Part shown: in pieces, positions 13,076 through 37,697 of the stretch
Layout of the letters: each line of letters begins with the position of its first letter
Numbering within the stretch: position 1 is the first letter of the stretch
Assembly: GCA_026770705.1 (NCBI GenBank)
Contig: JANJGN010000029.1
Span: 17,360,001-17,424,000, forward strand
Source: Isurus oxyrinchus
Taxonomy: Eukaryota
DNA length: 64,000 nt
Direction: 5' to 3'
Position numbers and translations under genes: made by a program
Notes under the pieces: model-generated
What the model saw: only the letters and a program-made list of their open reading frames with translations
Told to the model about the DNA's origin: nothing
Database searches by the model: none

Positions 13076-13334
13076 CAGTATAATCAGCTTAAGTCCCCTC
13101 TGATCACTATGTGTAGTTGTCTGGCTATCTGCAGATCTGGCACAAATCTCCTCCTGGAGAGTTAGCCAGCTCCACACATCATATTTCAACTCTTTCCTAT
13201 CCAAGCAAACACTACACAGCATTAAAAAAGGAGTAAAGGTCAATGCCGTAGTGATCTCTGCTGTAAGGAGAAATCCATAACCATCAGATGGTGACTAAAT
13301 CCAGATCGCTTGTGACCCATAAGCCTATAATATT

Positions 13335-13789
13335 GTCTGTGACATCTTTTGATGATCTGTTTCTATCACTGCTTGCTTGTCCCTACAACCACACCAANNN
13401 NNNNNNNNNNNNNNNNNNNNNNNNNNNNNNNNNNNNNNNNNNNNNNNNNNNNNNNNNNNNNNNNNNNNNNNNNNNNNNNNNNNNNNNNNNNNNNNNNNNN
13501 NNNNNNNNNNNNNNNNNNNNNNNNNNNNNNNNNNNNNNNNNNNNNNNNNNNNNNNNNNNNNNNNNNNNNNNNNNNNNNNNNNNNNNNNNNNNNNNNNNNN
13601 NNNNNNNNNNNNNNNNNNNNNNNNNNNNNNNNNNNNNNNNTTCCTATGTCTACTTAGTTCTGTCGAAGGGTCATGAGGACTCGAAACGTCAACTCTTTTC
13701 TTCTCCGCCGATGCTGCCAGACCTGCTGAGCTTTTCCAGGTAATTCTGTTTTTGTTTTGGATTTCCAGCATCCGCAGTTTTTTGTTTTT
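13335..13789 (+). mobile_element. Young Penelope-type short element spanning the assembly gap, with 13-bp TSD
   Basis: Direct repeat agcctataatatt at 13322-13334 and 13790-13802. The 3' part is nearly identical to 37166-37300 and includes ctgtcga-agggtc-atgag-gactc-gaaacgtc. Confidence 0.7.
13398..13640. other. Assembly gap (243 N)
   Basis: Run of N. Confidence 1.
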
Positions 13790-13919
13790 AGCCTATAATA
13801 TTTTCCATTCAGGCCCAAACATGGCACTGAGGGTAAATTCAGCATTCCCACCCTCCCAGTAAGTAGTCCCACTCAAGGAGTGAGATCCCACATATGGCAG
13901 TAACACAGTCCGAGCCGTC

Positions 13920-19715: not shown

Positions 19716-19845
19716 AGGGTAGATGTGGATGAAATGAGGAAGACTTTCCTTGTCCCGGAGATCAAGCCTTTGGATCAGTACGATTTTTCAAGAGCCAAGA
19801 TCGCAGGAAGCCTATCGTGGCTCCTGTCCAAATCCTATGGATCAG
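19716..19845 (+). CDS. CAMSAP3: First coding exon of a calmodulin-regulated spectrin-associated protein (CAMSAP3-like); first in-frame ATG at 19734, homologous start position 19716 reads AGG
   Basis: Translates (R)VDVDEMRKTFLVPEIKPLDQYDFSRAKIAGSLSWLLSKSYGS, matching the CAMSAP2/3 N-terminus. FLVPEIK.LDQYDFSRAK..SL.W favours CAMSAP3 over CAMSAP2. Phase-1 donor TCAG|gtacat at 19845/19846 is where CAMSAP intron 1 is expected. Family call is strong, paralog call moderate. Confidence 0.85.
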
Positions 19846-20764
19846 GTACATGATTTGTTATGGGAGCCTGTTCTCTTATTGTTTGATAGGGAGGAGGGAG
19901 GGGGGACAGTGAACAGAGAAATCGCTCCTGGTAATGCGCAACCGGAAGATGGTCTCATTAAAACAAAACTAGCGGCATTGAACCCTGTCCTGCAGTCCCT
20001 GAACTCCCGAGTTGGGGGTAGAATGTATCAAGCGAGGGAGGGAGGAGGAGGGGAGGGGGAAGAATCCCATTTTTATTTCAACCCTCCTCCTCCTCCTCCT
20101 TTCCCCCCCCCCCCCCAAAAAAAACAGTTACTTGATTATTTTTTTAATGGTACCTTTAATTTGCTTTCTCCCTCCCTCCCTGTACAGTGAATACATTGGA
20201 AGCTTATTTTCGCTGGGTCTTGTGCGGCTGGACCCTCGGCTGCGCTGGTGCTTGATTTATGGGCCATTGTTAACGAGGGCTCCCGAATCAGTTCCAGACC
20301 ATCATTCGGGGCTGGACGAATCCAAGGCAAAAAAAAACCCCCACTCATTGTTAAGATCTGCCTCGAACCGTGCGTTTGCGATGCGTTATTGATCTAATGC
20401 ATTCGGGGCTAAACCATTTAATTAAACTGGTTAAGAGGATTAAGAAGCAGCCCTGAACTGGGTTGGTGTGTGTGTGTGTTTTCTCTATCTGTCTGTCTCT
20501 CTATCTCCTCGGGCTGGCTGTGTGAAATTAAATGGCCTTATTTATTTATTTGTTTGTTTGTTTGTTTTTGGGGAAGAAAAAAGGCGCTTGTTGGCCGGGA
20601 ATTAAAATAAAATAAACCCATGAACGCCTTTCCCTGATTTTTGTTTTTGTAAAGGGGACAGGTCCCAATGTGTAATTGCAAGAACGCGACCTCGGTGTCG
20701 GTTTCACCTGGTGAAATTGACAGCCGGTCGGTTAGAGGCGAGCGGGATTGTAATGGAGTTAGTG

Positions 20765-34167: not shown

Positions 34168-37067
34168 ATCAACATACATCATGTTGCACTCTGAGATGCT
34201 TCAATACAATTTGTATTTGATGCATACATTCATTGTGAGCTGTACAGGCACCTGGCCTTACAGATAGTGTCAGAATGACTACACCCTGCGAAAGGTGGGC
34301 CTGTGGCTGTTGTGTGACTGTTGCTGTTGTCAATAATTATGATATTCTGGTGATTGTTACTGAGTGAGGACTTGGTGCTTAGGCACTCCCAATGGTTTAT
34401 CACCCCCCCACCCCCACCCCCCCAGCAGTTTGTTTAGAGCTGAAATCAAAAAAAGGGGATGGTAGTACAAAGTCTCTGCGACTAGTTTTTCTGGAAACTG
34501 AGGAGGGTGTGGGAATATTTAAATGACACCTTTTGCCCTGTTGAACACTTCAACTTTTGTGTCGGTGAAGTGCGGAGCCAGCATTGCGTTAACACAGCGG
34601 GAAGTCTGAGCACCTTGGATCAGTTGAAAACAGGTTCATGGTTTTGTGGTTTCGAGACGTGAGGTTGCACGATAGGCTGCTAAGGGGAGATGTGTTGGCG
34701 CTGTTCAGAATGGAGGGGCTTCAACAGAGTAAATCAGGATAAACTGTTTCCACTGGCAGGAGGATGGGTAACTAGAGGACGCGGGTAATTGATAGTTGGT
34801 TGGGAATTGGGGGAAGGATGAGAATTTTTAAGCAGTAAGTTGTTGTGACCTCGAATGCGTCGCCTAAAAGGGCGGTGAAAGCAGATTCATCTGTAACTGT
34901 TGAGGGAATTGGATATATTATACTTGGAAAGATTTGCACATTTCCAAATTTGGAATAGAGTGGTAGAGTAAAATTAATTGATTGGAGAGCTCTTGGAAAG
35001 ATGGGCTGAAGTGCTGCCTCCTGTATGACTCTCTAATAATATTCCGAGTTCTCTCTGCCTATTTAGATGGATGTCACAGACCCCATGCTGTTATTTGAAG
35101 AAGAGCATGTTCTTCTGAGATACTGGAGCTGAATACACTGGAGAGAGAAAGCCAAGGGACTATTGGTTTGATTTTTAATAGGCAATGATTATTTCCCCTG
35201 GTTAGTGTTGTTGGGATTAGTTGTCGAGGTAGGTTTGGATTAGGATTATTTTTAGGGGTGTAAAGTGAGAAGTAGAAGAAACCTTTTCAAAGCTGTGAGA
35301 ATATTCACTTTGTTCCCACAAGAAGCGACTAAATCAGAAAAAGTTTAAGAGGGAGTTCGATAAACGATTTGGATAGGGGGCGTGGGATGTTAATGGTTGG
35401 TTGTGCGCTCTCCCATACCTGCGTTTTCTTGCACCCCACACACCATTATACCAGCACCATTTCTGAAGAATTAGCTGAGCCGTTCCTTCAGCTGCCTGCA
35501 CCCTGAGCTCTGGAATTTCGTCTCTAAATCTCTCCGCGCCTCTACTTCTCTCCTTTTTAAGAATTTCCTTAAAATCTATCTCTTTGATCAAGCTTTTAAT
35601 TATCTGTCACAATATCTCGTTCATGGTCCAATTCTCAAACTGTGGTAATGCTCCTGTGATGCTGGGATGTTGCATTTTAGTATATAAATGTTCAGGGGCA
35701 CCGATAATTCAAACCCATGGCTGTTGCAAAGGACAGGATTCCACTATGCCAAACAAGTGTCATCACAACCTCACTGCTTTGGCTGTTGGTGCTGACCCTG
35801 TGCATTGGCAGGTGTGGAAGACGCCAGTGTGAGATACTCACTCTGATTCCATGCATTGACACATGGGCCCTGAGGCGCTACAGTCTCACATACCCAGCGA
35901 GTATCCAGAAAAAAACTGATGCTCCTGTTTTGGTAAACAACGCCTGGTTCATTAACTCATTATCCGGTTTGTCAAGTTGGTGCTGAAATTAGTAATTTGG
36001 AGCTTGCATTAAGAGTTAGACTATACACAAAAGCAAAATGCTACAGATGCTGGAAATCTCAAATGTAGATAGAAAGTAGTGGAAGCACTTAGGCCAGGCA
36101 ACATTGGAGGAGGGGAGAAGAGATTTGTAAGGAAAGGTAGGAGCAGGGGGAGCAGGAGTAGGCCATTCGGCCCCTCAAGCCTGCTCCCCCATGCAATAAG
36201 ATGGCTGATCTGATTGTTGTATTGAGTCCAATTTCTTGCCTGTCCCCATAACCCTTGACTCCCTTGTGGATCAAAAATATGTCTAACTCGGCCCTGAATA
36301 TATTCAATGGCCCAATTATATTGACTCTCTGGGTGGAACCTATTCCCATTTCATAAGCCTGCACTCCTAACCAGCGAGTTTCAGCTTTTAAGTGCTTTGG
36401 TTGACATGCTCTGGGACTGAAACAAAGAATTTTTTTTTCTCCCTCCTCATCTGTCCAGTTCTCATTTCCTGTTTGATGCAGTTGAGTTCAGTAGGAAATG
36501 GCTGAATAACCTGCCAAATGGGTTTCTGTTTCCTGTGCTTTGGCTGCTCATTGTCACAAGGTAGGGGATTTGGTTGGGAACTGGTGGGGGCAAAGGGGGC
36601 AAACAAATATCAGGACTCAGCTGAGCTACTGATGTTTATTTTCTGGGAGGGGGGCTGTGGGGAAGGCAGTGGCATTGGGTTCATCTCTGCCAACCATGTG
36701 ATGCTTTCGTTCGCGTTCGTCTGCAAAGTCTTCTGAATAAATGACCACACTTCAGACATACTTCATTGGCTGCCAAGCGCTTTGAGACATCCTGAAGTCA
36801 TGAAAGGTGCTATGTAAATGCAGGTCCCTTGTCTCTGGGACTTGTTTCTGATTTTTTTTTCATTATCTTTCAATAAGGCACCAGCAATTTTCTGATCCCG
36901 TGTTTAGTGTGGTTATAATGGAGGAGCCACAATCCTGAGATGTTTAGACTTTCTTTATCCACATTTTCTATCCTTCCAAAGACCTGGGCCTGTGCTGCTT
37001 TTTTATTTTTGCATTGTGGGTCCATGGGTCTTCTGCTATCTACAGTGGCAGACACTTCTCCCATAGT

Positions 37068-37300
37068 AAAAACCGGATTCCCTGGAAAAACTCAGCAGGT
37101 CTGGCAGCATCGGCGGAGAAGAAAAGAGTTGATGTTTCGAGTCCACATGACCCTTCAATAGAACTGTTCTGTTGAAGGGTCATGAGGACTCGAAACGTCA
37201 ACTCTTTTCTTCTCCGCCGATGCTGCCAGACCTGCTGAGTTTTTCCAGGGAATTCTGTTTTTGTTTTGGATTTCCAGCATCCGCAGTTTTTTTTGTTTTT
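37068..37300 (+). mobile_element. Palindromic (inverted 5' duplication) Penelope-type short element with 14-bp TSD
   Basis: TSD acttctcccatagt at 37054-37067 and 37301-37314. Arms 37068-37164 and 37166-37262 are near-perfect reverse complements about position 37165. Confidence 0.85.
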
Positions 37301-37310
37301 ACTTCTCCCA

Positions 37311-37697
37311 TAGTGTTGTCAATCCTCCAGGATTGCCCCGGAGTTTCCTGAAATTAAAGACGGGCTTCAAGGATACTGCTGCAAGTATCCCACTAGAAAA
37401 ACCATAGAAGTTACATTTTTTCCCCCCTCCCTTTTTTAAAAAAAAATTATTTTAAAATACATATGCTTTTGTTTACTAAGTATAAACATATTGGGGAAGG
37501 GATGGAGGTTGCTTGACCTCCCAGAAACATCCTATTGAGTAATGGAGTGTTGCTCACTTGCTGATTGGTGGAGGAAAGTGGGTGTATCACAAAGATTGAC
37601 ATGATGAACAGCCAATGGGAGTATGGGGACAGGGTGGATGGAAGCAGGAGGTCACATGATAGATCCAGGAATATGTTCAGCCCGAGTTGGCAATCGT
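37311..37697. mobile_element. Old non-autonomous TIR (MITE-like) element
   Basis: Degenerate termini agtgttgtcaatc...gagttggcaatc (gttgccaac/gttggcaac type). A related right end occurs at about 44710-44745. Confidence 0.4.

Follow-up and report, generated by a model that had tools for sequence, protein, structure and literature searches.

The 64-kb stretch of DNA analysed here (the window) contains a 261-bp palindromic feature (37054..37314), in which a target-site duplication (TSD) encloses two inverted arms and a tail (Table 1). The TSD, ACTTCTCCCATAGT, was found at both ends of the feature and nowhere else in the window. The arms paired over 97 bp (37068–37164 with 37166–37262) with 5 mismatches, 3 of which become G·U pairs in plus-strand RNA. 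The first-pass annotation, made from the letters of the window, had described a 14-bp TSD, near-perfect inverted arms of about 97 bp and a 38-bp 3′ extension, all of which were confirmed. Its 1-nt centre at 37165 has to be reworded: a single T is present there, but it is a left-arm base, complementary to the A that the family has at −34, and there is no spacer. In the family numbering used throughout, the hammerhead cleavage base C17 (37199) is 0.

Table 1. Coordinates of the focal insertion, its sister copy and the host gene context in the window
Feature	Position	Strand	Remarks
TSD of the sister copy, 13 bp	13322–13334 and 13790–13802		
Sister copy, same family	13335..13789	+	CUGUCGA core; longer 5′ part; partly N
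Presumed CAMSAP-like first coding exon	about 19734–19850	+	Host gene context; approximate limits
Left TSD, 14 bp	37054..37067		Exact direct repeat
Short inverted pLTR arm	37068..37165	−	Family −34..+63; 3′ end of the family's short class
Left hammerhead-like motif, broken	37127..37165	−	U6, G5A (37159), G16.2A (37133), loop change (37145)
Long pLTR arm	37166..37300	+	Family −33..+101; 96–99% identity to top family copies
Right minimal type-I hammerhead-like motif	37166..37203	+	Layout as in PMC4209133
Right motif, core CUGUUGA	37169–37175	+	
Right motif, stem II	37177–37181/37187–37191	+	
Right motif, GAAA	37192–37195	+	
Right motif, C17	37199	+	
PLE tail, 38 nt	37263..37300	+	Covers the stretch separating the short from the long 3′ end class
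Right TSD	37301..37314		Exact direct repeat

The core letters were as annotated, CTGTTGA in the right arm and CTATTGA in the left, with CTGTCGA in the sister copy at 13660. The geometry of a hammerhead is recognizable in each arm, but the GUC triplet assigned to both was present in the right arm only; the left arm reads GAAAC-AUC and has accumulated 5 changes, G5A and G16.2A among them. The right arm keeps 3 of the 4 bases of the helix I 5′ strand. An Rfam scan of the window at E ≤ 1 returned no hammerhead family, only miRNA hairpin matches below threshold, which were discarded as generic hairpin scores beneath gathering. Because both arms carry U7 plus a minority G at 37250 (G in ~3% of family reads), they appear to descend from one common source or to have been homogenised afterwards. 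Elsewhere in the window, old decayed relatives of the pLTR family were found on the minus strand at 1769–1900 and 36035–36122 (74 and 67% identity, respectively).

A Penelope-like source family

The right arm matched many places in the genome at 96–99% identity (40 of 620 candidates scored), and a downstream 31-mer of the family had 93,634 exact matches in the 4.98-Gb genome of the host, which is probably a shark. A parent element was found at L261:741–7500 (G000:C1, about 462–469 kb), where three near-identical pLTRs, all with U at core position 6 (U6), lie at 3.35-kb spacing around two ORF copies in the tandem order pLTR-ORF-pLTR-ORF-pLTR. One ORF copy is frameshifted near its start; the other is intact (918 aa, L261:4234–6987), with an RVT_1 match above the cut-off (E = 6.9e-8) and a GIY-YIG match just below it (E = 8.9e-4; 20 bits versus a cut-off of 22.6). 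This ORF, with its RT and GIY-YIG matches, supports the Penelope-type origin proposed in the first-pass annotation.

Read from its sequence, the parent protein has a CX4CxxC linker and a CxxC inside the GIY-YIG domain; a PDB search with this protein gave 0 matches. Neptune and Nematis Penelope-like elements (PLEs) are described as having a C-terminal GIY-YIG, a CX2-5CxxC linker and a CCHH motif (PMC8557442), and the parent protein likewise has a C-terminal EN, a linker of this form and a CCHH motif. The single RT + GIY-YIG ORF and the tandem-derived pLTRs of EN+ PLEs were both found. Complex insertions of EN+ PLEs consist of an inverted 5′-truncated pLTR, a 30–40 bp tail at one end and a TSD (PMC8557442, PMC3846280); this combination was found in the focal element and in 36 of 37 close inverted pairs. 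Judged by its sequence, the source is an RT + GIY-YIG Penelope-like element, of the Neptune/Nematis type by its protein motifs, and the L261 tandem is a candidate for a recently active source. Its intact ORF with U6 pLTRs is usable for PLE assays.

The hammerhead core and its history

The U6 form of the hammerhead 28-mer with the UGAG loop had 83,418 exact matches, compared with 171 for A6 and 115 for G6. The canonical core C3U4G5A6 is thus replaced by a U6 majority, and in the left focal arm by G5A as well, within a minimal type-I geometry (CUGANGA..GAAA..UH). The A6→U change common to the focal arms and the 13.66-kb copy was an inherited family trait, as first suspected; it marks a long-running lineage of ~1e5 copies over several subfamilies, of which the young mobile subfamily first proposed would be only a part. 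Stem II differs between subfamilies by two-sided changes (GGGUC/GACUC in the present one, GAGUC/GACUC in the older ones, AGGUC/GACCU in one that is more distant), in a comparison whose search patterns preselect pairing.

For older subfamilies, whose loop reads UA(C/U)G, there were 9,456 exact matches, and the first 100 listed comprised 59 A6 and 41 U6 copies. Divergence from the own majority was 9.7% for A6A7 (n = 26), 5.7% for A6U7 (n = 7), 6.5% for U6U7 (n = 11) and 3.8% for U6/UGAG (n = 93), rough values that are biased by selection on exact motifs. A midpoint-rooted tree was built from ORF 3′ ends (45 of 205 arms, each with at least 100 aa covered). Five old A6 copies grouped on long tips (96/85), and a ladder led up to the youngest U6 copies; one U6 row of odd composition fell outside. 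Five A6/UGAG copies stood singly within the U6 part, and the A6/U6 label needed 6 changes. In the more distant family with the AGGUC/GACCU stem, 15 of the 18 listed rows had A6. Because of the tip lengths and this A6 majority, U6 appears to be derived from older A6 subfamilies, under the midpoint root of the tree. Among UGAG-loop copies, A6 and G6 are of similar rarity, as would be expected if A6 had arisen there by later point mutation, and the A6/UGAG copies were rejected as an active source on these counts (171 versus 115) and on their scattered tree positions.

Across 43 read-through U6 arms, hammerhead positions varied little (0.02–0.05 non-majority, compared with 0.13 at −61..−35), the exceptions being N7 and CpG sites. 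This suggests continued constraint on the hammerhead footprint, one of several conserved parts of the pLTR, and either an RNA fold or a DNA signal would fit. Monomer folds of the hammerhead region did not exceed those of shuffled sequence in stability (z +0.3 to +0.6) and were given no weight as support.

Single mutants of the CUGA turn had low activity in one scanned hammerhead (PMC9901934), A6C hammerheads were slow in Mg2+ and active in Mn2+ (PMC7151607, PMC3088659), and minimal PLE hammerheads were weak even with a canonical core (PMC4209133). PLE hammerheads can have protein assistance, and hammerhead mutants of PAc, a Poseidon element of Anolis (Frangieh et al. 2024), were unimpaired in insertion in vitro (PMC11167929). 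The core variants described in the accessible literature were U3-A8 (PLEs) and A6C (phage Bcep176); no activity test of an A6U mutant was found there. A search by title and start of abstract listed nothing on this family or its U6 core, although such core variants may be described elsewhere.

We consider it rather likely that the U6 core cleaves weakly or not at all with its fold retained. A still-active variant with assistance is possible but carries less weight, and neutral decay is quite unlikely, the conserved hammerhead footprint of the U6 subfamily arguing against plain decay. What stands out is the continued multiplication of a family with an altered core letter, by which cutting of its ribozyme is likely weakened. 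The apparent passage from an A6 to a U6 lineage, followed by an expansion of about tenfold in exact-match counts, fits the in vitro dispensability of cleavage. As a tentative and rather improbable extension, the hammerhead of the U6 lineage, having lost A6 but retained its fold over ~1e5 insertions, may be a non-catalytic structural landmark whose 5′ edge, not the cleavage site, sets the stops of both twin-primed cDNAs; if true, the function of PLE hammerheads in the retrotransposition RNP would be that of a boundary or a binding structure, not of scissors. The family offers a natural experiment on two open points of PLE biology, namely the role of the hammerhead and the origin of the inverted ends.

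Insertion ends and the origin of the inverted arms

At 2,999 loci the two hammerhead starts lay back to back, 0–6 nt apart, in an exact pattern from which the focal copy itself is excluded because of G5A; the centre was 1 nt in 10 of the first 50. The focal palindrome shares its near-identical centre with these loci and is an ordinary member of thousands of truncated inverted insertions, unimportant as a locus in itself. Centre letters and arm lengths varied continuously between loci, and the centres were often asymmetric or had extra bases.

The close inverted pairs among the sampled loci (n = 37) comprised 36 long + short, 1 short + short and 0 long + long combinations. Within the subset chosen on neither tail nor junction, 18 of 19 were long + short (binomial p ~4e-5 against 50:50, by hand calculation). 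With one mismatch allowed, TSDs were called in 35 of the 37, 25 of them 14–16 bp long, a few of the 35 calls being clearly spurious (microsatellite, 9-mer). At the first 50 back-to-back loci, N7 was C/C in 41, T/T in 7 and mixed in 2 arm pairs, where ~13 mixed pairs would be expected under independence. Rare core variants occurred in both inverted arms even at distances of 1–2 kb (C4:109119773/109121860, C21:35143825/35144956 and C5:23175467/23175577 of G000). Variants common to arms so far apart point to a single template or to arm-to-arm conversion.

The survey of ends covered 93 anchor matches out of the first 100 listed; they lie within the first 3.7 Mb of one contig. The 3′ ends were bimodal, with 47 long (~+102), 43 short (~+65) and 3 other arms, and solo insertions flanked by a TSD of their own (L077 and L146) had short ends too. 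The script called 51 of the 93 arms 5′-truncated between −85 and +9, and 50 remained after a check by eye, in which two calls proved wrong (L083 reads through and L105 ends at −34); breakpoints are good to a few nt. None of the 93 began at the hammerhead cleavage site (+1), two starting at +6 and +8. The bin −39..−30 held 22 ends (23 corrected), some of whose −34 calls could be upstream variants that went unrecognised, while other 10-nt bins held 0–8. Among inversion-flagged ends, 19 of 29 lay in −43..−27, a range picked after the data had been seen.

The same survey of an older A6 subfamily covered 72 arms out of its first 100 matches; there, 23 of the 72 ends fell in −39..−30, two had unrelated upstream DNA and at most 1 lay at the cleavage site; one end was at −1, which is ambiguous with +1, and one at −6. 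Because 5′ ends do not pile up at the cleavage site, the inserts are best read as copies of RNA uncut there. The A6 relatives show the same cluster, so the breakpoint cluster at helix I appears to be older than U6, and U6 was rejected as its cause. Spliced templates were also rejected, since no sense-orientation join of upstream element sequence at −32 was found among 138 arms scanned, one distant 16-mer match being taken as chance. A permuted upstream hammerhead (GGACUC-GAAA-UC) cutting at −36/−35 was not conserved, being missing from the GAAC variants and the older subfamilies.

Other features of this region were seen along the way. A polypyrimidine tract followed by AG ends exactly at helix I (family −55..−33; L173, L180 and L006) in both old and young subfamilies, and resembles the intron end of D. 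virilis Penelope. In the youngest subfamily, the upstream sequence now resembles the 3′ half of the hammerhead (GGACTCGAAA-TCAA, L006:1474–1500), a possible alternative partner of stem II. One palindromic insertion lies within a (GATA)n array and has been duplicated along with it (L014/L015, G000:C45 3.563–3.564 Mb).

We regard it as quite probable that the two head-to-head pseudo-LTR ends arose in one event, by twin priming, with both nicked target strands priming on uncleaved element RNA. The endonuclease would nick the two target strands ~14 nt apart; one strand would prime at the distal start (~+102) and the other at the proximal start (~+65), giving the 38-nt tail. Synthesis of both cDNAs would continue beyond the cleavage site and end close to where helix I begins on its 5′ side (−34 and −33), possibly because the RNA ends there or RT is halted, and the cDNA 3′ ends would then be joined head to head. 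The U6 core would have come from the source lineage and would probably cut weakly or not at all. Priming from two RT start sites is favoured by the close inverted pairs, which are long + short and never long + long. Structure, parent element, counts and end distributions were observed directly, whereas we infer the staggered nicks, two-site priming, helix I stop and head-to-head joining, the priming by analogy: PAc has two internal RT start sites that define its tail, and both strands are extended (PMC11167929). PAc, however, is a lizard element of the Poseidon clade, and its start sites are inside the ORF. The strict long + short pairing and the helix I breakpoint cluster are predictions testable in the existing in vitro PLE system.

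Alternatively, one cDNA or an antisense template could have folded back and primed itself to make the mirror arm; head-to-head junction palindromes of Penelope elements in rotifers were read in this way (PMC3846280). This we hold to be improbable, if the most serious of the alternatives. The rare variants common to both arms fit fold-back copying or arm-to-arm conversion as well as they fit twin priming, and at the breakpoint cluster one upstream variant contains a short hairpin sequence (GAACT-CA-AGTTC), but the A6 relatives have the same cluster despite different upstream sequence. The asymmetric centres and extra bases also count against a fold-back, and short solo insertions, which have no inversion, share the +63..+70 end class of the short arms, given which fold-back would fit less well than twin priming.

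It is very unlikely that the palindrome moves as a MITE- or retrozyme-like unit, non-autonomous and copied whole. The abundance of loci with a 0–6 nt centre and the recurrent 1-nt centre would suit such a unit, but the clustering is explained by the breakpoint hot spot common to solo copies, centre letters and arm lengths form a continuum, and the arms are the parent's pLTR. In non-LTR retrozymes, units with a complete hammerhead follow one another as direct repeats in tandem (bioRxiv 10.64898/2026.07.22.740005); here, no direct tandem array was found, and two inverted units with non-canonical cores stand in its place.

The twin-primed insertions proposed here resemble Adineta vaga Pen2a (PMC3846280) and the elements of Craig et al. 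2021 (PMC8557442) in their head-to-head inverted pLTR, one-arm tail, TSD and pLTR hammerhead. Compared with these, the focal arms are minimal, both stopping at the hammerhead 5′ edge, and there are thousands of loci; the TSDs are ~14 bp long, versus 8–10 bp in the rotifer examples (PMC3846280, PMC8557442). With the minimal type-I PLE hammerheads of Cervera & de la Pena 2014 (PMC4209133), the family shares a short helix I, an extra base before stem II, G10.1-C11.1, palindromic 15.2–16.2 and the lack of a loop III, and it differs in position 6, which is U, not A, and fixed over ~1e5 copies. Like PAc (PMC11167929), the family has two 3′ end classes one tail apart and inserts that copy uncleaved RNA, with no ends at the cleavage site; unlike PAc, it belongs to another clade, has its proposed start sites before the ORF start and has a non-canonical hammerhead core. 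The insertion shape is already published, and the U6 core was not found in print by the title and abstract-start search, which listed nothing on this Neptune/Nematis-type family, although such junctions may be described elsewhere.

The focal insertion in its gene context

An exon at about 19734–19850 (+), which we take to be CAMSAP-like from its motifs, lies upstream of the element, and CAMSAP_CH exons lie ~115 kb downstream on the same strand (C29 +). We infer from these exons that the element is intronic in a CAMSAP-like gene on the plus strand. The hairpin first envisaged in the CAMSAP pre-mRNA is predicted to be very stable (−183.7 kcal/mol, z −25.7, 0 of 200 shuffles equally stable). The ideas of ADAR or Dicer substrates and of a cruciform, speculative here, would hold no less for the sister hairpins, of which there are thousands. 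The back-to-back hammerheads fared worse as folding ribozymes: forcing the right stem II alone costs a predicted 30 kcal/mol, and on either strand the antisense arm is transcribed first, so neither motif is predicted to fold. Both are predicted to be silent, the left having G5A and both being locked in the hairpin, and the most likely reading of the focal insertion is a hairpin that lies inert in an intron.

Short-read contigs of a related species from two studies ran from the left flank into the left arm by 24 nt, and one began 25 nt within the tail and continued into the right flank; these overlaps are shorter than a 31-letter bridging rule requires, but an empty site would not give them. 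This suggests that the insertion is common to the related species and hence not very recent. The flanks differed by ~1.4% between the two species (8 other letters in 592).

Use of the structure by the host, as a regulatory dsRNA hairpin or an active ribozyme pair in the CAMSAP pre-mRNA, is highly improbable. The very stable predicted hairpin, its inferred intronic position and its apparent retention in a related species would be in keeping with such use, but the left arm has taken on 5 changes, G5A and G16.2A included, the antisense-first order and the cost of stem II hold on either strand, thousands of equivalent hairpins exist, and with flanks so similar, sharing between species needs no selection. 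An assembly artefact is scarcely credible: chimeras do occur at long palindromes, and the focal one was not spanned in full by any contig, but the TSD is exact, the 5 differences are specific to the arms, the contigs of the related species enter the left arm and join the tail to the right flank, and junctions of this type were present, at the family level, in 193 raw reads (42 starts) of another individual.

Just past the CAMSAP-like exon, at 20030–20120 of the window, a purine-rich and then pyrimidine-rich hairpin-like stretch gave only sub-threshold Rfam miRNA matches.
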